Source of the DNA: Achromobacter sp. MFA1 R4
GTDB taxonomy: Bacteria > Pseudomonadota > Gammaproteobacteria > Burkholderiales > Burkholderiaceae_B
Length of the DNA stretch: 32,000 nucleotides
Assembly (NCBI RefSeq): GCF_900156745.1
Contig: NZ_LT707065.1
Location: forward strand, 5,064,086 to 5,096,085
Reading direction: 5' to 3'
A program made the translations under genes and the position numbers. A model generated the notes under the pieces. The model was given only the letters and a program-made list of their open reading frames with translations, was not told the DNA's origin and did no database searches. This document shows, piece after piece, positions 18,361 through 26,045 of the stretch. Each line of letters begins with the position of its first letter. The first letter of the stretch is position 1.

Positions 18361-18547
18361 TGCGTTTTCTTATTTATCAATGACTTGGAAATAACCGGGC
18401 CAAACTTGGCTCGATTTTCCGGCCAAACCGCGGCTTTTCTTGAGCCGCGATGGCGATCGGCTGGCTGATTCGCGCGGGATTCAGCTTCAAGGCCTTGATG
18501 TTGCAGGGGTTTTCTTTGCACCGCTAACGCTGGCACGGATTTCGCAT

Positions 18548-21500
18548 ATGTCGCCGCATTCCCGACAACGGGATGCCTCCGGCCTCTTGAAGGCCATTGC
18601 GACGACACCGGACTCCGTCATGCCAACCCCGCCAGGCGCTGCCCCCTCCGTTCCAAAGCGAAACGCCCCTCCCGTCGAAGAGCACTACACCGACGCCGAA
18701 TACCAGGAAGCCGAAGCCGAGAACGACGGCATCCAATGGAGCGACGAAGACCTGGACGGCCCGCAGGGCGTGGTCGCCCCGCTGAACACCATTGCCCCCG
18801 AAGACGTCGAAGCCGGCCAGAACGCCTTTGACCAATGGCTGCGCGAGAACAGCGACGGCTGGGTCACGCTGCCGCGCATCAAGGCGGCAGCGGGCGCGGT
18901 GCCGGTGCTGGGCAACCTCATGGCGCTGGTGGATGCCATCGGCGACATCACGACATTGGTCGACAGCAATCCCACGCAATTCCTGGACTGGGTCAGCCTG
19001 GGCATCAACCTCTTTGGCGTGGTGCCCGCGCCTGGCACGGCGGCTGCGCGCATGAGCCTGCGGCCCGCGCTGTTTCTCGTGCAAAAGGAGGTCGCACGCC
19101 AGGCCAAGGCGGGCCTGGGCAACGCGATCATCATGGCCCTGGCTGCGCACCTGAGCGAGAACATCGCTGGCGACATCGAAGACTTCGCGCAACAGGCGCA
19201 GGCCCGGCTGGAAGGGCTGCTGCGGGATGCGGGGGCCAAGGCAGAGGAAATCATTCGGGCGCTGGCCGATGTCCTGGTCAGCCTGACCGTGCCGGCCAAC
19301 GCGGATGCCTCGTTCGAGAAAGCCGGCGCGCAGCTCTCGTCCGCGTGGGACAAGAAATGGGACTCGCCGCGGGGCGCCGCGCGCGACCTCTGGGATGGCC
19401 TGGGTAGCGGCGTGCGCGGCAGCAAGCAGTCGGTCGGCAACGCCGCCAAGGACCTGCTGCCCGGCAAGGCGCGCGACTTGATGCTGCGCTCCGCCCAGCG
19501 CCTGAACGCCCTGGCGCCGCAAGTCAATGACAGCATGCAATCGCTCGCCGACGAGAACAACGTCAACAGCATCGCGTCATTGCTCATGCACCTGTCGGTG
19601 GCTGTGGTGCTGTGGCGCCAGCGCAAGGGGTACGCCATCGGCACGAACGTGCGACCGGCCGTGGCGAGCAAGGCCCGGCAGATGGCGCGCTCGATGCGCC
19701 TGGCGCGCATCCGCCGCCAGGCCCGCGCGCGGCGGAATGCCAATCCGGACAAGAACGGCGCCTGCCCGGCCACTTGCCACAGCATCAGTTTTGCGATGGG
19801 CACGGAGCGCATCAAGCATGTGGATTTCTCGCTGCGCGGGCCTTTTGCGCTGCGCTGGGCGCGAACGTATTCGTCGGATCTCGCTGCGTTTGATAGGGGG
19901 CCGCTGGGCGCGCGCTGGATCAACGAGTACACCACACGCATCGACATCAAGACGGCAGGCGCGGATCGCGAAACCCTGCGCTATCACGCCGAGGACGGAC
20001 GCACGCACGCGTGGCCGCTACCGGCGGTTGGCAAGTTCCACTACGACCCGGTCGAGAATCTGACGGTGGTGCGCACTTCCGACACCGACCTAACCGTGGC
20101 GCAAGGGTACGAGCGGCGCGCCACCTACCAACGCGAGGGCCGGCGGTTTCGGCTGACGGGCATCTACCTGCGCAACGGTGCGCGCGTGGCGCTGCACTAT
20201 CGGCATGTCGTGGGACGGCGCAGCGTTCTGTCCGACCTCGTGACGTATCTGGACGATGCACCTCACACGCACGTCGGCACGCAGATCGACGCCGCCGGCC
20301 GCATCGTCGCGCTCTGGCAGCTCAAGGACGGAGAACCGCAGCGGCAACTGGCCGGTTACGACTACGACGAGCAAGGGGACCTGCTGCAAGCGCGCGACGA
20401 GCACCAGGCGCAGTGGGACTACCACTACCGACACCACCTCATCACCCGCTACACCGACCGCACCGGACGCGGCATGAACCTGGAGTGGAAGGGTTCAGGC
20501 CCCAAGGCGCGCGCCATCCGCGAATGGGCCGACGACGGCAGCTTCGACACGCGCCTGCGCTGGCACCCCGAGATCCGCCTGACCTATGTCACCGACGCGC
20601 TGGGCCATGTCACGGAGCACTACTACGACATCGACGGCTACACCTACCGCATCGTGCACCCGGACGGCCTGTCGGAATGGCTGTATCGCGACGACGGCAA
20701 GAACGTGGTCACGCACATCCACCCCGACGGCAACATCGACAGCTACGCCTACGACGAGCGCAGCAACCTGCTCGAACACTTGCGCGCGGACAGCACCTCG
20801 GTCCACTACGCCTACGACGACCAGGACCAGCTCTTCAAGATCCGCGACGCCGAAGGCGGCCTGTGGCAGCGCGACTACAGCCCGCGTGGGTATCTGACCG
20901 AGACGATCGATCCGCTGGGTCACAAGACCGAATACGCCTATGACGCGGCGGGCCATCCGGTTGCGATCCGGGACGCCCGGGGCGGAGAGAAACTGCTGGC
21001 CTACGACGCCGCAGGCCAGCTTACGCAGTACACGGATTGCTCGGGCAAGCGCAGCGCGTGGATGTATGACGAGGCGGGACAGGTGACCGCCTTCACGGAT
21101 GCGGCGGGCAACGTCACGCGCTACGGGTACGAGGCGGGGCACCTGGCCCTGGTCACGCACCCGGACCAGACGGTCGAACACTACGAGCGAGACGCCGAAG
21201 GGCGGCTACTGGCCCACACCGACGCGCTGGGCCGGCGCACGCAATGGACGTACAACGGCGCGGGGCTCCTTGCCCGGCGCCTGGACGCGGCGGGCAGGAC
21301 GCTCCAATACGAATGGGACAAGCTGGGCCGACTCACGGCGCTGGCGAATGAGAACGACCGGCAAGCGAGATTTGTCTATGACCCGGCCGGGCGACTGCTG
21401 GAGGAGCGAGGCTTCGATGACGTGGCCACCCGATATCGCTACGACCCGGACAGCGGAACGTTGCTGTCGGCGCAGGATGGTGACCGGGTAATCGAGTTCA

Positions 21501-23488
21501 TGTTCGACGCATTGGGCCGCGTGACACAGCGGCTGGCGCGGCCGTATGCGCCGCCGGCGCAGGCCCCGGTGCAAACGGTCGCGAAAAGGGGCGCGCAAAC
21601 GTCAGCGCGAGCCTCGACACGCTCAGCGCAGGTTCGCGTCGAGACGCAAACGGAGCGCTACGCCTACGACGGCAACGGCCGCCTGATCCTCGCCGAAAAC
21701 ACCGCCTGCCGGCTCCAATGGTTCCACGACGCCGCCGGCAACCTGACCCGCGAACACCAGCACTATCTGGCCCTGGCGCAGCCAGTCGTGGCGGTCTGGA
21801 AGCACGAGTACAACGAGCTGAACCAGCGCATCGCCACGCACCGCCCCGATGGCCATCGCGTCAGCGTGCTGACCTATGGCTCGGGCCACGTGCACGGCCT
21901 GATGTTCGACGACCATGAACTCGTCAGCATCGAACGCGACGACCTGCACCGCGAGACCACGCGCACGCAAGGCAATGGCCTGGCGCAGACGCAATCGTGG
22001 GACGCGATGGGGCGCCTCAATGCACAGAGCATCGCGCGGGGCGCGCAACGCCTGATCCACCGCGGCTACCGCTACGATGCGGCCGGCCAGTTGGAAGCAA
22101 TCCAGGACAGCCGCCGAGGCCCCTTGGCCTACCGCTATGACCCGGTAGGACGCCTATTGGAGGCCACCAGCAGCCTCGGCAAGGAAGCCTTCGCCTTCGA
22201 TCCGGCCAACAACCTGCTGGATCCGGCGAGCCACCCAGCACAAGAGTCCCCGGGCATGGCGGGCCCCGTCTACACCTACCGCCAGCGTTCCGCGCGCCTG
22301 GACAACCTCCTACGCGAATACGCCGGCACCCACTACACCTACGATGCCCGCGGCAACCTCGTTGAAAAGCTGCACAACGGCCAGCGCTCGCGCCTGCAGT
22401 GGGACCTTTTCAACCGCCTGACGGGCTACAGCAACGACCGCCTGCACGTGAGGTACCAGTACGACGCGCTGGGCCGCCGCCTGCTCAAGCAGTCCGAGGC
22501 TCACTGGCGCGAACGGCCGGGCATGACGCCCGCGCAGCGCCAGGAAGAGCAAGCCCGCCTGAACCGCGCGATGGGTTGCAGCACAACGCTGTACGGTTGG
22601 GATGGCGATACCTTGGCATGGGAAGGCCGCGACGACCAGACCACGCACTACCTCTACGAACCCGGCAGCTTCGTGCCACTGGCCCAGGCGATCAGCCGCA
22701 AGCCCGTGCTGCTGCATCAGCAACCGGCTTACGCGGATGCCTATGACATCGACCGCGATCCGCTATGGATATCCTCGCCCGACCCGGACCCGGTGGACGC
22801 CATGGCCTGGTATCACTGCGACCACCTGGGCACACCCCAGGAACTGACTGACGCGCAAGGCGAGGTAGTTTGGAGCGCGCAATACCACGCGTGGGGTGCA
22901 GCCAAAGAGGCCATCACCGATGCCGCCCGCGCGGCGGGAATCCGTAATCCGATCCGATTCCAGGGGCAGTATCTGGACCCGGAAACGGGCCTGCATTACA
23001 ACCGGCATCGATACTATGATCCGCAGATCGGACGGTTCATTGCGAAGGATCCGATCGGGTTTGCGGGTGGGCTGAATGTTTATCAGTATGTGGATAACCC
23101 GGTGGGATGGGTGGATCCGTTGGGGTTGGCTCCCCAATTGCCCAAAGCTTGCGGTTGTTTGGATTGGTCGAGAGTCCATCCCGCAACTGGGGAGAGTGCG
23201 ATCGATCACGTGCGCAAGCACGGAACAGACAATCTAGAAAAGCCATCACATGGAATTTTCAACGAGGATCCGATAACGACGACAAACGCGGCATGGAGTA
23301 AAGCGGTAAAGGATGGCGTGCGACCTACAGTAGGAGGAAATGGCAACTTCAACTACGACATCACATTTCCTAATGCAGGAAAGGCTGGGGGCTTTTCGGG
23401 CTTGGCGGCCGGCAATCCAACTTTGAATGGCGTAAAGATTGTCACTCTCCCCGGGACAAATAAGGTGGTGACTTCATTTCCAAAATGA
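18548..23488 (+). CDS. rhs: Rhs-family polymorphic toxin (YD-repeat shell with variable C-terminal toxin)
   Basis: Track ORF 18440..23488; the first ATG is at 18548 and the start is uncertain. From 19760 there is a DUF6531-like entry (CPATCHSISFAMGTERIKHVDFSLRGPFALRWARTYSS). Many YD repeats follow (YAYDxxGxL, RYxYDxxGRL). The Rhs core end is YYDPQIGRFIAKDPIGFAGGLNVYQYVDNPVGWVDPLGL (ends 23128), followed by a 119-aa unrelated tail. Confidence 0.93.
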   Translation: MSPHSRQRDASGLLKAIATTPDSVMPTPPGAAPSVPKRNAPPVEEHYTDAEYQEAEAENDGIQWSDEDLDGPQGVVAPLNTIAPEDVEAGQNAFDQWLRENSDGWVTLPRIKAAAGAVPVLGNLMALVDAIGDITTLVDSNPTQFLDWVSLGINLFGVVPAPGTAAARMSLRPALFLVQKEVARQAKAGLGNAIIMALAAHLSENIAGDIEDFAQQAQARLEGLLRDAGAKAEEIIRALADVLVSLTVPANADASFEKAGAQLSSAWDKKWDSPRGAARDLWDGLGSGVRGSKQSVGNAAKDLLPGKARDLMLRSAQRLNALAPQVNDSMQSLADENNVNSIASLLMHLSVAVVLWRQRKGYAIGTNVRPAVASKARQMARSMRLARIRRQARARRNANPDKNGACPATCHSISFAMGTERIKHVDFSLRGPFALRWARTYSSDLAAFDRGPLGARWINEYTTRIDIKTAGADRETLRYHAEDGRTHAWPLPAVGKFHYDPVENLTVVRTSDTDLTVAQGYERRATYQREGRRFRLTGIYLRNGARVALHYRHVVGRRSVLSDLVTYLDDAPHTHVGTQIDAAGRIVALWQLKDGEPQRQLAGYDYDEQGDLLQARDEHQAQWDYHYRHHLITRYTDRTGRGMNLEWKGSGPKARAIREWADDGSFDTRLRWHPEIRLTYVTDALGHVTEHYYDIDGYTYRIVHPDGLSEWLYRDDGKNVVTHIHPDGNIDSYAYDERSNLLEHLRADSTSVHYAYDDQDQLFKIRDAEGGLWQRDYSPRGYLTETIDPLGHKTEYAYDAAGHPVAIRDARGGEKLLAYDAAGQLTQYTDCSGKRSAWMYDEAGQVTAFTDAAGNVTRYGYEAGHLALVTHPDQTVEHYERDAEGRLLAHTDALGRRTQWTYNGAGLLARRLDAAGRTLQYEWDKLGRLTALANENDRQARFVYDPAGRLLEERGFDDVATRYRYDPDSGTLLSAQDGDRVIEFMFDALGRVTQRLARPYAPPAQAPVQTVAKRGAQTSARASTRSAQVRVETQTERYAYDGNGRLILAENTACRLQWFHDAAGNLTREHQHYLALAQPVVAVWKHEYNELNQRIATHRPDGHRVSVLTYGSGHVHGLMFDDHELVSIERDDLHRETTRTQGNGLAQTQSWDAMGRLNAQSIARGAQRLIHRGYRYDAAGQLEAIQDSRRGPLAYRYDPVGRLLEATSSLGKEAFAFDPANNLLDPASHPAQESPGMAGPVYTYRQRSARLDNLLREYAGTHYTYDARGNLVEKLHNGQRSRLQWDLFNRLTGYSNDRLHVRYQYDALGRRLLKQSEAHWRERPGMTPAQRQEEQARLNRAMGCSTTLYGWDGDTLAWEGRDDQTTHYLYEPGSFVPLAQAISRKPVLLHQQPAYADAYDIDRDPLWISSPDPDPVDAMAWYHCDHLGTPQELTDAQGEVVWSAQYHAWGAAKEAITDAARAAGIRNPIRFQGQYLDPETGLHYNRHRYYDPQIGRFIAKDPIGFAGGLNVYQYVDNPVGWVDPLGLAPQLPKACGCLDWSRVHPATGESAIDHVRKHGTDNLEKPSHGIFNEDPITTTNAAWSKAVKDGVRPTVGGNGNFNYDITFPNAGKAGGFSGLAAGNPTLNGVKIVTLPGTNKVVTSFPK
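22234..23128 (+). repeat. Direct repeat copy A (3' Rhs core, inside the main rhs gene)
   Basis: It aligns at nucleotide level with 24224-25001. Both start at ...CCGCACAAGA.TCC..GGGCATGGC.GGCCCCGTCTACACCTACCGCCA and both end at GATCCGTTGGGGTTGGC. Confidence 0.9.
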
Positions 23489-23500
23489 ACGAGGAAAGTT

Positions 23501-23809
23501 ATGGAAGATAAATATTACGTAGCCATGGCCGTGAGCGTGGACTGTTATGAGCAAAGCGACTATTTATATCTGATGGCACTGGATGGGGTTGAGATCATTG
23601 GTTACGCGGCGGAGTTCGATACGTGCACAAACGATGTGGCCTACGCGTGTGATCCTCACAACTATGAAAATGCAAAATGGTTCGCTTGGAACGAGAACTG
23701 GCAGTGGCGCCCAGCAACACTTGCAGAGATTGAGGCAGCAAAACTCGATAAATATCTGATCGGCGTGAAAGACGACATGAAGACGACGACGGCGATTCGC
23801 CGCTTGTAA
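23501..23809 (+). CDS. Putative cognate immunity protein of the main Rhs toxin
   Basis: The ATG lies 12 nt after the rhs stop and has a GAGGAAAG SD. The product is 102 aa, acidic and aromatic-rich (MEDKYYVAMAVSVDCYEQSDYLYLMALDG...). GC content is low like the toxin tail. I recognise no family. Confidence 0.7.
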   Translation: MEDKYYVAMAVSVDCYEQSDYLYLMALDGVEIIGYAAEFDTCTNDVAYACDPHNYENAKWFAWNENWQWRPATLAEIEAAKLDKYLIGVKDDMKTTTAIRRL

Positions 23810-23958
23810 CGGTCTCGCCGAGAAGAGGAAATGGCAAGCCGGGATGGGCTCCGCGCGCCTTCGCAACTTGCTGTTTGGGTACGTCGGGACGCAGTATCCC
23901 TCCAGGGCCGTGATCTCATCGAAAGACTCCACCACGTTCATCTCCGCAACCTAGGGTT

Positions 23959-24055
23959 CACTGCGACCAGTTGGGCACACCGCAGGCACTGACTGGTGAG
24001 TAAGGCGAGACTGGGAGGAACGCGCTATGGCACGCGTGGTGCGCAGCAAAAAGAG
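23959..24055 (+). pseudogene. Decayed remnant of an Rhs core end (HCDQLGTPQALTGE-stop, then frameshifted)
   Basis: CACTGCGACCAGTTGGGCACACCGCAGGCACTGACTGG...AAGGCGAG...ACGCGTGGTGCGCAGCAAAAAGAG aligns with main rhs 22813-22910 (YHCDHLGTPQELTDAQGE..YHAWGAAKE). It has substitutions, an in-frame stop and indels. Confidence 0.6.
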
Positions 24056-24100: not shown

Positions 24101-24220
24101 TTAAGCCGGCTCGCTCGCGCCGATCCCGTCCAGCGCCCTCGCCACATCCTCCGGCAACCGCAACGACCCCGCCGCCATATTCTCCCGCAGATGGCCAGAC
24201 GATGACGTGCCCGGTGCGAG
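24101..24220 (-). pseudogene. 3' fragment of an aldo/keto reductase gene (last ~39 codons only)
   Basis: The minus strand reads LAPGTSSSGHLRENMAAGSLRLPEDVARALDGIGASEPA-stop. PGTSSxxHLxEN is the conserved AKR C-terminal motif. The reading frame is cut by a stop where the orphan Rhs homology begins (about 24221). Confidence 0.5.
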
Positions 24221-25229
24221 CTACCCCGCACAAGAATCCTCCCTGGGCATGGCCGGCCCCGTCTACACCTACCGCCATCGTTCGGCGCGCCTGGACAACC
24301 TCCTACGCGAATATGCCGGCACCCACTACACCTACGACGCGCTGGGCCGCCGCCTGCTAAAGCAATCCGAAGCGCACTGGCGCGAACGGCCCGGCATGAC
24401 GCCCGCGCAGATCCGGGAAGAACAAGCGCGCGCGAATCGCGCGTTGGGCTGCAGCACGACGCTCTACGGCTGGGATGGCGATACCCTGGCATGGGAAGGC
24501 CACGACGACCAGACCACGCACTACCTCTACGAACCCGGCATTTTCGTGCCGCTGGCCCAGGCGATCAGCCGCAAGCCAATTCTCCTGCACCAGCAACCGG
24601 CGTACGCCGGAGCCTATGACATCGACCGCGATCCGCTATGGACGACCTCGCCCGACCCGGACCCGGTGGACGCCCTGGCCTGGTATCACTGCGATCACCT
24701 GGGCACGCCGCAGGAACTGACCGACGCGCAAGGCGAGATCGCCTGGACTGCGCAATACCACGCGTGGGGCGCGGCAAAAGAAGCCATCACCGATGCCGCG
24801 CGCGCGGCGGGAGTCCGTAATCCGATCCGATTTCAGGGGCAGTATCTGGACCGGGAAACAGGCCTGCATTACAACCGGCATCGGTACTATGATCCGCACA
24901 TCGGACGGTTCATTACGAAGGATCCGATCGGGTTTGCGGGTGGATTGAATGTTTATCAGTATGCGGATAATCCGGTAGAGTGGGTTGATCCGTTGGGGTT
25001 GGCGCGTTCAGGTCGATGGACTCCAGTCGGGAATGGGCGAATACGGGTAGACCCCCCGCACGTCGAAAATACCGATCAGCAAGTACACGCACACTGTCAG
25101 TGCAAATCACGGCATCAAGAAGTCGTTGTTAACCGCGACGGTACACAAAGTCATGGATCGCGGGGCAAGATTTCCGACTTGACTAGAAAAGAGATGGAAT
25201 ATTTGCGAACTCAAGGATTTGATTTATGA
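24207..25229 (+). CDS. Orphan, 5'-truncated Rhs C-terminal fragment carrying a different toxin tail
   Basis: The open frame starts at a GTG with no SD. Residues from YPAQESSLGMAGPVYTYRHRSARLDNLL to NPVEWVDPLGL parallel the main Rhs. The frame then continues with a 75-aa unrelated His/Cys-rich tail (25002-25229). Confidence 0.8.
   Translation: MPGASYPAQESSLGMAGPVYTYRHRSARLDNLLREYAGTHYTYDALGRRLLKQSEAHWRERPGMTPAQIREEQARANRALGCSTTLYGWDGDTLAWEGHDDQTTHYLYEPGIFVPLAQAISRKPILLHQQPAYAGAYDIDRDPLWTTSPDPDPVDALAWYHCDHLGTPQELTDAQGEIAWTAQYHAWGAAKEAITDAARAAGVRNPIRFQGQYLDRETGLHYNRHRYYDPHIGRFITKDPIGFAGGLNVYQYADNPVEWVDPLGLARSGRWTPVGNGRIRVDPPHVENTDQQVHAHCQCKSRHQEVVVNRDGTQSHGSRGKISDLTRKEMEYLRTQGFDL
24224..25001 (+). 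repeat. Direct repeat copy B (orphan Rhs core end)
   Basis: Homologous to 22234-23128. It lacks 120 nt (one YD unit) found in the main copy at about 22340-22459/22349-22468, and has one extra codon near the 5' end. Confidence 0.9.
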
Positions 25230-25483
25230 GAAAGCTAGCCGGATTTAGAGCCCTAGGCACTGCAGTGGGCACCGATACGTCCATAGCGCTGGACGAAATT
25301 TCCATAATTGGCAGCGCAGACACCTTTCGTGCGCTCGGTAATTTTCTATTAAGGGCTTCCCGAGAAATCCAACTCCATGATATCGAGCATATGCACCTTC
25401 AAGATGCAATCGCGGATTTCTCTCAAGATAACCATGTCGACATCATCGTCCTCAATGAGAGGAGAATTAAACAGAAGGGGTGA
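25226..25483 (+). CDS. Putative immunity protein of the orphan Rhs toxin
   Basis: The ATG overlaps the orphan stop (ATGA at 25226-25229) and AAGGA lies upstream. The product is 85 aa, from low-GC sequence. I recognise no family. Confidence 0.6.
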   Translation: MRKLAGFRALGTAVGTDTSIALDEISIIGSADTFRALGNFLLRASREIQLHDIEHMHLQDAIADFSQDNHVDIIVLNERRIKQKG

Positions 25484-25721
25484 AGCGATATACGGGCGGT
25501 GGCAAGGTCAGGGGTGAGTTAGAAACACTCCCCGCGCCGCGTTGGCGTTGATGCCGAAAACCAGGAAATCGTTATTTTGGACAAGACAGTCACTCATCCA
25601 AATGGAGATGAAGAGTTTCACGGACATGTGCGGTGCTGGTGCGACTTGCATGATACGCACCGCTCCGCATTACAGAGATCTGGAATGGCTACAAGCAAAG
25701 GAAAACTCGGGAGATAGCAGA

Positions 25722-26045
25722 ATGGCGAATCTTTACACCAAATCTGAAATCGAACGTCTGCTTGGGTCCACCGACAGGAGTGTCGTTGCAGATGCATTGC
25801 TGAATCTGTGTTTCAACTCGGACGACCCGGAATGGATCCTGGATAAATGCATCCAAGCAATTAAGGATGGCGGAGATGATGAGATAAAAGGGCTGGCTAT
25901 TACCTGCATTGGGCACGTCGCCAGAATGCATAAGAGGATTGATCGAAACAGGGTGATGCCAATTCTCGACCGTGAACTTGATAACCCGGTGCTGTCGGGA
26001 AGAGCGCAAGATGCCCTGGACGACATCGACCAGTTCGTTGAATAG
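25722..26045 (+). CDS. Lone immunity-like small protein (helical, HEAT-repeat-like)
   Basis: The ATG at 25722 follows GGGAGA with a 7-nt spacer. The product is MANLYTKSEIERLLGSTDRSVVADALLNLCFNSDDPEWILDKCIQAIKDGGDDEIKGLAITCIGHVARMHKRI... There is no adjacent toxin gene. The track ORF starts at a TTG at 25542, which I consider unlikely. Confidence 0.5.
   Translation: MANLYTKSEIERLLGSTDRSVVADALLNLCFNSDDPEWILDKCIQAIKDGGDDEIKGLAITCIGHVARMHKRIDRNRVMPILDRELDNPVLSGRAQDALDDIDQFVE

Follow-up and report, generated by a model that had tools for sequence, protein, structure and literature searches.

The question raised by this locus is which kind of toxin a large Rhs/YD-repeat protein carries at its C terminus, and whether the small gene directly behind it encodes the protein that neutralizes this toxin. 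The genes lie in a 32,000-nucleotide (nt) stretch of contig NZ_LT707065.1 from Achromobacter sp. MFA1 R4—hereafter the window, to which all coordinates refer unless a locus number precedes them—and comprise a Rhs/YD-repeat polymorphic toxin gene (18440..23488, + strand), which forms an uninterrupted open reading frame (ORF) of 1682 amino acids (aa) counted from the first possible start, and a downstream ORF of 102 aa. We find that the locus is a Rhs polymorphic-toxin module of the standard kind, with a cargo from a family that is absent from the domain libraries searched. The toxin/immunity pair is a new family within an ordinary, known kind of system, and we propose that the toxin is a ribonuclease (RNase) remotely akin to the bacterial RNase A-like and EndoU enzymes.

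The conserved part of the Rhs ORF ends where the original prediction, which had been made without database searches, had placed it. In Pfam, the ORF matched PF05593 RHS_repeat (E=1e-58, 13 stretches), DUF6531, and the PF03527 RHS core, and in NCBIfam it matched RHS_core, YD_repeat_2x, TIGR01643 (E=9e-56), and TIGR03696 Rhs_assc_core. The last of these, the Rhs-associated core (22883..23128, + strand), covers residues 1482-1563 with model positions 1-76 of 76 matched, and the end of the model falls on nt 23128, i.e., on residue 1563, the last L of ...NPVGWVDPLGL. DPLGL is, then, the border between the conserved shell and the variable C-terminal toxin in this ORF. The 119-aa tail that follows (23129-23485) is exactly the one quoted in the prediction and runs directly into the stop codon TGA at 23486-23488. 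A 12-nt spacer, ACGAGGAAAGTT, separates the Rhs stop from the small ORF, and within it a Shine-Dalgarno-like GAGGA (23491..23495, + strand) stands 5 nt upstream of the ATG at 23501, so that the predicted arrangement of tail, spacer, and ribosome-binding site was found in full. The predicted drop in guanine-cytosine content is likewise real: values of about 0.66 along the Rhs core (0.64-0.70 in 300-nt windows) give way to 0.47-0.53 across tail and small ORF. The tail after DPLGL is unrelated to that of a neighboring orphan Rhs copy, which is described below.

The small ORF (23501..23809, + strand) has the properties of an immunity gene. Its 102-aa product is acidic, with an isoelectric point (pI) of 4.3 and a net charge of about -9, and has neither a signal peptide nor a transmembrane segment, while the toxin tail of the window is basic (pI 9.0). 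Nine homologs of the 102-aa protein, with E values down to 5e-63, were found in Achromobacter, Burkholderia, Paraburkholderia, and metagenomes, the closest being 98% identical (in a sequencing-run assembly) and 79% identical (in Achromobacter sp. MFA1 R4). A homolog lies directly downstream wherever the window's subtype of the toxin occurs, and toxin and homolog stand side by side in at least 7 further independent loci. Both adjacency and co-divergence extend across four genera, Paraburkholderia, Burkholderia, Methylobacterium, and Pseudomonas. Thus, relative to the window proteins, Paraburkholderia sp. BCC1885 has an intact toxin of 70% identity followed by a 102-aa homolog of 61%, Methylobacterium indicum has a toxin of 60% and an immunity protein of 38%, and in three Pseudomonas genomes the values are 45-49% for the toxin and 24-28% for the immunity protein; the two proteins thus diverge together. 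The toxin/immunity layout that had been proposed from the gene order is borne out by this conserved adjacency and co-divergence.

Further loci contain a decayed toxin or none. Paraburkholderia antibiotica and metagenome loci L004-L007 have an intact immunity gene next to a frameshifted toxin; Burkholderia diffusa has a frameshifted toxin together with an immunity match broken at residue 77/78; and loci L002 and L003 hold an immunity gene without a toxin. An intact immunity gene beside a decayed toxin is the pattern expected from selection for protection. All 14 of the 14 immunity homologs analyzed are acidic (pI 4.2-5.1) and devoid of a hydrophobic segment, which indicates that the target of the toxin is cytoplasmic. 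A periplasmic target was considered and rejected, since the immunity protein has no signal peptide. From these sequence comparisons, we regard it as very probable that the 102-aa protein is the cognate immunity partner of the tail.

The tail itself consists of two parts. Its first 10 residues, APQLPKACGC (23129..23158, + strand), form a linker ahead of the toxin domain, where alignment columns 1-10 are not conserved and the mean predicted local distance difference test score (pLDDT) is 61, vs. at least 94 elsewhere. The toxin domain proper comprises tail residues 11-119 and, with the stop codon, occupies 23159..23488 (+ strand); it is supported by the family alignment, a structural model from AlphaFold (AF2), and profile alignment with hhalign. 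Neither the tail nor the 102-aa protein gave a match in Pfam, NCBIfam, PHROGs, or the sequences of the PDB, in keeping with the original statement that neither could be placed in a named family, and the immunity family as a whole had no match in Pfam or the PDB. A word-indexed protein search with the tail returned just two relatives, both Rhs fragments of Burkholderia ubonensis. Searches of plasmid and phage DNA with the locus gave no match, and the corresponding protein search gave one Rhizobium CdiA-like gene only. An exhaustive HMMER scan of 1.8 billion representatives, clustered at 50% identity, yielded 313 clusters of tail homologs at E<=1e-3, of which 140 also pass E<=1e-10.

In all 152 of the 152 proteins retrieved, the domain forms the extreme C terminus, with 0-37 residues beyond it. 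What stands ahead of it varies: the Rhs DPLGL motif, the ..VHN end of PT-HINT domains, or the hemagglutinin/VENN regions of CdiA-like proteins, and, in Firmicutes, the domain is encoded by an orphan cassette that follows a toxin locus of the LXG (type VII) kind. Besides Firmicutes, the family has members among Beta-, Alpha-, and Gammaproteobacteria, and its position behind a Firmicutes LXG locus means that it crosses the divide that separates Gram-negative from Gram-positive bacteria. Judged by its homologs, the tail is a bona fide mobile toxin domain of a widespread family lacking from the libraries searched. That Pfam, NCBIfam, and PHROGs have missed the family despite its 313 clusters matters in practice, for its annotation would give a name to several hundred "hypothetical" toxin tails and immunity genes, and polymorphic toxins are a source both of new enzymes and of strain-level competition. 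As a separate observation, on the Firmicutes metagenome contig (L101 1016-5831) the orphan cassette with the toxin domain lies 3' of a complete LXG locus with DUF4176 and YwqH-like genes.

A second subtype of the toxin, 37-44% identical, comes with a different partner. Here the toxin is followed by an unrelated protein of ~80 aa with the pattern CxxC...CxxCxxxW.xP[ED], which we call the 4-Cys partner. It was seen in Rhizobium tumorigenes, in Herbaspirillum, at the Firmicutes LXG locus, and with the main Rhs of Paraburkholderia BCC1885, its genes (L008 3354-3605, L016 2973-3212, L009 866-1102, and L101 5592-5831) lying directly downstream of this other toxin subtype. In Pfam, the 4-Cys partner gave matches to zinc-ribbon (TFIIS-type) models, all of them below threshold. 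The two subtypes meet in the array of Paraburkholderia BCC1885 (L009 1-864 and 2048-2434), where they are 37% identical: the tail of the main Rhs is accompanied by the 4-Cys protein, and an orphan of the window's subtype by a protein of the 102-aa type. That each toxin subtype in this array has its own partner argues for specific pairing. The toxin family thus comes with two immunity families, one acidic and of 102 aa, the other zinc-ribbon-like with 4 Cys, neither of which rises above a Pfam threshold. A "4Cys-Imm" partner of BECR toxins has been described (PMC9424270); it may be the same as the 4-Cys partner here, and the S8-BECR families treated in that work may include the present toxin family.

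We then turn to what the domain might do. Column conservation was scored over 146 near-full-length domains and is given in tail numbering. H27 (23207-09) is present in 144/146 and H31 (23219-21) in 145/146, and position 38 is basic (K/R) throughout (146/146), the window having K38 at 23240-42. Position 41 is His in 109 and Gln in 35 of the sequences (Gln, 24%), with H41 of the window at 23249-51. Toward the C terminus, T115 (23471-73) is kept in 131/146, F/Y117 (23477-79) in 137/146, and P118 (23480-82) in 141/146. Other invariant or near-invariant positions are L11-D/N12-W13, G21, G42-V/I43-F44, and A55-W56, and P66, Y76, P79, G84, and G87-G88 are also conserved; residue 28, which follows H27, is always V or I, position 26 is acidic, and position 22 is Glu or Gln. 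The residues that the original prediction had singled out within DHVRKHG, PSHGIF, and VVTSFP proved to be family-invariant in these columns, and a reading of the codons showed all family-invariant residues to be intact in the window copy.

AlphaFold run on the single sequence gave a pLDDT of 34, and this model was replaced by one built from a 50-row alignment, with a pLDDT of 93.1 and a predicted template modeling score (pTM) of 0.85. The latter begins with short beta bridges at 12 and 16 and a helix (24-32) bearing H27 and H31, continues with a strand (41-44) from H41, a helix (48-62), and a long beta segment (74-87), which on the model may be read as two strands, and ends with a short helix (88-93) and strands 98-106 and 112-118, the last of which carries T115-x-F117-P118. 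The same order of elements is given for BECR and RNase A/EndoU-like RNases (PMC3482391, PMC7297114), and the predicted order of helices and strands is compatible with these enzymes at the level of secondary structure. Of the structural approach that the original prediction had outlined, modeling of the tail alone thus succeeded, and a Foldseek search with this confident model retrieved none of these enzymes (see below).

Kinship with one group of known toxins is suggested by comparison of profiles. These RNase A-like toxins, among them CdiA-CT(Ykris), have a kidney-shaped two-sheet RNase A fold and both RNase and cyclic CMP hydrolase activity. They have been joined with the EndoU enzymes in one superfamily (PMC7297114) on the strength of two signals, an N-terminal helix-turn-strand element bearing two histidines, and a C-terminal strand with an aromatic residue next to a Pro at its end, which packs on the histidines and on a conserved Leu of an additional N-terminal strand. 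In Ykris, mutation of H175, R186, T276, or Y278 makes the RNase less active, and homologs often have Phe in place of Y278 (PMC5435912). We rebuilt two pieces of CdiA-CT(Ykris), HLIDRHVGKTEAELLNRVSTGNVK and GYKIITGYPTP, from the mutagenic primers in PMC5435912; the former corresponds to residues 3-26 of PDB chain 5e3e_B and led to toxins from Bacillus and Streptomyces plasmids annotated as "RNase A-like domain-containing." A profile of three of these plasmid seeds matched the whole chain 5e3e_B at E=2e-30, and expansion of the set with 80 metagenome loci gave a 29-sequence alignment.

When the 146-sequence toxin family was compared with this RNase A-like alignment by hhalign, the two were linked with a probability of 69-70% (P=4e-5, score 31.1). 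In comparison, reversed profiles scored 8-10, 150 column shuffles reached a maximum of 18.9 with a median of 10.9, and the immunity family scored 12 as a negative control. An independent query alignment of 34 sequences gave P=5e-5 over 44 columns, and the C-terminal part alone gave a probability of 90% (P=1.7e-6). The extended alignment is collinear over 97 columns and places Ykris G169...H175-V176 on G21...H27-V28 and R186 on K38, both basic residues lying at +11 from the His, while at the C-terminal end T276 falls on T115, Y278 on F117, and P279 on P118. The equivalence of N-terminal residues to those of Ykris is suggested by this alignment. Most likely, the family forms a distant branch of its own within the RNase A-like/EndoU assemblage. 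On this reading, it has retained the Thr-x-aromatic-Pro strand together with the basic residue and the His that acts as general base; the first Ykris His has been lost, and H31 and H41 are gains, one of which probably supplies the general acid, which Ykris lacks.

Beyond these residues, the likeness to the CdiA-CT(Ykris) family (5E3E, PF18431) extends to the general plan. Both are C-terminal toxin domains of ~110 aa found in Rhs, CdiA, PT-HINT, and type VII secretion system proteins; both have an N-terminal helix with G-x-T-x3-H-V and a basic residue 11 positions past the His, a C-terminal strand of the form hydrophobic-hydrophobic-T-[GSA]-[YF]-P, and a similar order of helices and strands; and both are followed directly by the gene of an acidic cytoplasmic immunity protein. 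The differences are also plain. Our family has Glu or Gln in place of H170, the first histidine of Ykris, whereas the H31, H/Q41, LDW, AW, and GxxGG motifs of our family are missing from that of Ykris; the stretch from His to Thr is ~18 residues shorter here; the immunity proteins are unrelated; and there is no match at the level of hidden Markov models (HMMs), nor was 5E3E retrieved by Foldseek. If the link holds, the family would give the RNase A/EndoU superfamily a further branch, one that has other histidines, which would bear on how a catalytic site can be rebuilt on an old RNase scaffold.

In the mechanism that we propose, the Rhs shell would cut itself at DPLGL, as other Rhs and Rhs/Tc proteins suggest by analogy, and free the 119-aa tail into a neighboring bacterium. 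There the tail, a compact alpha+beta domain, would cleave RNA internally and without a metal, as a member of the prokaryotic RNase A-like/EndoU superfamily. As for the chemistry and the substrate that we infer, H27 would serve as the general base and K38 as the stabilizer of the transition state, the C-terminal strand with T115-x-F117-P118 would complete the active site, and the family-specific H31 and H41 would each be a candidate general acid; cleavage would leave 2',3'-cyclic phosphate ends, and tRNA, rRNA, or bulk RNA are candidate substrates. The acidic 102-aa protein would bind the basic toxin, probably over its RNA-binding face, as synteny and charge suggest, and when bound would shield the producer and its kin. 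We put the probability of this full statement, a metal-independent RNase toxin with its cognate immunity protein, at roughly 0.6; that the tail has RNase activity, whatever the details, seems from its sequence relationships rather probable.

Several observations weigh against this reading. None of 166 family members matches the Pfam models for EndoU_bacteria, RNase A-like, or Ntox domains, which agrees with the original view of the domain as a possibly new one, and the family profile has no match in the PDB sequences at E<=10, 5HKQ and all other EndoU chains included. Foldseek of the confident model against the PDB and BFVD retrieved no structure of an RNase A, an EndoU, or a BECR enzyme; the matches were NTF2-like only and at the level of noise (E>=0.3, template modeling score [TM] <=0.38), as was Nsp15 (E=2.7, TM 0.15). 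Scores of HMMs against sequences between the toxin family and the RNase A-like family are noise as well. The hhalign signal, moreover, is confined to the last strands: the His-bearing N-terminal halves alone scored 8.4, equal to the null median, so that the equivalences H27=H175 and K38=R186 are not independently significant. H27-x3-H31 together with H41 can equally be read as a metal-binding triad. Finally, no VgrG, PAAR, or Eag gene is present among the large ORFs of the window. The resemblance to EndoU/BECR-fold toxins that the original prediction had noted stands, therefore, as regards a profile link to the RNase A-like toxins, and falls as regards the EndoU_bacteria model and structural neighbors.

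The alternative that survives best, and which we consider unlikely, grants that the toxin/immunity pair is genuine and makes the toxin a metal-dependent hydrolase (a DNase, a peptidase, or another enzyme) with a cytoplasmic target, in which H27-x3-H31 and H41 bind the metal. An H-x3-H on one face of a helix, an invariant His/Gln ten residues on, and the acidic position 26 would suit such a site, and so would the absence of a structural neighbor among known RNases in Foldseek and of significant similarity between the N-terminal half and the RNase A-like toxins. However, Gln, which takes position 41 in 24% of the members, is a poor metal ligand, and the V or I that always follows H27 leaves no zincin-type glutamate. 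The His-bearing helix precedes the strand, whereas HNH/beta-beta-alpha-Me enzymes have these elements the other way round, and both the invariant T-x-[FY]-P strand and the match to RNase A-like toxins would be left unexplained. Two particular enzymes of this sort were also examined in their own right and rejected, a zincin/metzincin peptidase for lack of a Glu after the first His and for the wrong spacing of the third His, and an HNH nuclease for the reversed order of elements in the AF2 model.

We consider it quite unlikely that the domain has no kinship with RNase A/EndoU at all and represents a new fold or type of catalysis, with a His-His-His/Lys site that acts on a cytoplasmic target other than RNA or by way of a metal, and with a T-x-[FY]-P strand that arose by convergence. 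If this were true, a new fold or catalytic type would be spread over the Rhs and CdiA proteins of Gram-negative and the LXG and PT-HINT proteins of Gram-positive bacteria and be neutralized by two new immunity folds.

It is very doubtful that the tail is a divergent member of Pfam EndoU_bacteria (PF14436) with the His-His-Lys triad of XendoU, Nsp15, and CdiA-CT(STECO31). EndoU toxins (CdiA-CT STECO31, 5HKQ; MafB MGI-1 NEM8013) are, like our family, C-terminal RNases of polymorphic toxins, and they resemble it in having two N-proximal histidines in a helix-turn-strand (here presumably H27/H41), an aromatic-Pro in the last strand (here presumably F117-P118), and, within an additional N-terminal strand, a Leu that is conserved (PMC7297114) and whose counterpart here would be L11. 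The gap of 14 between H27 and H41 lies inside the range of 12-18 for EndoU histidine pairs (PMC7297114), and an invariant basic residue is available in K38. One member of the family, P0110 (UniRef100_A0A645AB82), is even named "Bacterial EndoU nuclease domain-containing protein" in UniRef, which we treat as a lead only; given this name, an older Pfam EndoU model may have reached into the toxin family. PF14436 itself, however, matched neither the tail nor 34 domain sequences (E<=1), nor P0110 (E<=10), nor 132 further sequences (E<=0.1), and it is absent from the precomputed Pfam annotations of the database matches. The failure of the family profile to find 5HKQ or EndoU chains in the PDB and the noise-level score of Nsp15 in Foldseek, both given above, also count against EndoU membership. 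In addition, the catalytic Lys of 5HKQ lies far downstream of the histidines (H187, H204, K261; PMC9086364), whereas K38 lies between them here, and the Lys/Thr pair K261/T262 of 5HKQ has no counterpart at the same place. A likeness by description only exists to Ntox35 and the BECR-fold Ntox families (Zhang et al. 2012, PMC3482391), which occur in the same kinds of polymorphic toxins and combine two N-terminal His and a last-strand Ser/Thr with a fold of a helix plus a four-stranded meander; unlike these, no member of our family is matched by a Pfam Ntox model.

That the tail is a decayed or non-toxic cassette followed by an unrelated small ORF is scarcely credible: many homologous cassettes elsewhere are indeed frameshifted orphans and there are no genes of a type VI secretion system (T6SS) nearby, but the tail continues the reading frame of a complete Rhs of 1682 aa and has every family-invariant residue intact, conservation and co-divergence of the pair extend over Beta-, Alpha-, and Gammaproteobacteria, and the retention of intact immunity genes beside decayed toxins is a signature of selection for protection.

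For the RNase toxin that we favor, a route of delivery may be supposed by comparison with other systems. Rhs residues 1-440 (18440-19760) contain several hydrophobic stretches; no recognized domain, no PAAR, and no prePAAR motif was seen there. Given the absence of VgrG, PAAR, and Eag genes from the window and of a trafficking domain from the protein, delivery by a T6SS is an assumption made by analogy with other Rhs systems. The locus resembles the Rhs loci of Escherichia coli, Dickeya, Salmonella, and Pseudomonas in its YD-repeat shell, its DPxGL boundary, its low-GC tail with an immunity gene, and its orphan core fragments farther downstream, which carry other tails and immunity genes, and it differs from known Rhs loci in the lack of these delivery genes from the window and of a trafficking domain from the first 440 residues. 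Its neighbors are housekeeping genes, upstream those for isocitrate dehydrogenase, threonine dehydratase, an acyltransferase, and a porin, and downstream those for an amino-acid ABC transporter.

The features 3' of the immunity gene are the usual orphan-cassette array that enables replacement of the toxin by recombination. The first is a 94-nt relic of the Rhs core, HCDQLGTPQALTGE* (23958..24051, + strand), which shares 78% identity with 22813-22906, has a further relative in 24686-24779, and, as these similarities suggest, is probably the scar of an earlier cassette exchange. Next comes an orphan C-terminal fragment of Rhs (24207..25229, + strand) with a different tail of 75 aa (…QQVHAHCQCKSRHQEVVVNRDGTQSHGSRG…GFDL) that belongs to no Pfam family. 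The core part of this fragment repeats 22247-23128 at 87-89% identity, and a core repeated at this level is a substrate for toxin-swapping recombination; the downstream orphan fragments would then provide alternative toxin/immunity cassettes. The start of a putative immunity gene of the orphan toxin (25226..25483, + strand) overlaps the orphan's stop. Its 85-aa product has a sub-threshold match to Imm32 (E=4.8e-5, 23.6 bits vs. a cut-off of 27), and the pair of orphan tail and Imm32-like protein is also found in Paraburkholderia antibiotica (L001 1365-1783). After this second immunity gene, still in the low-GC tract, comes an ORF of 167 aa (25542..26045), which matches no family and is perhaps one more orphan immunity gene.

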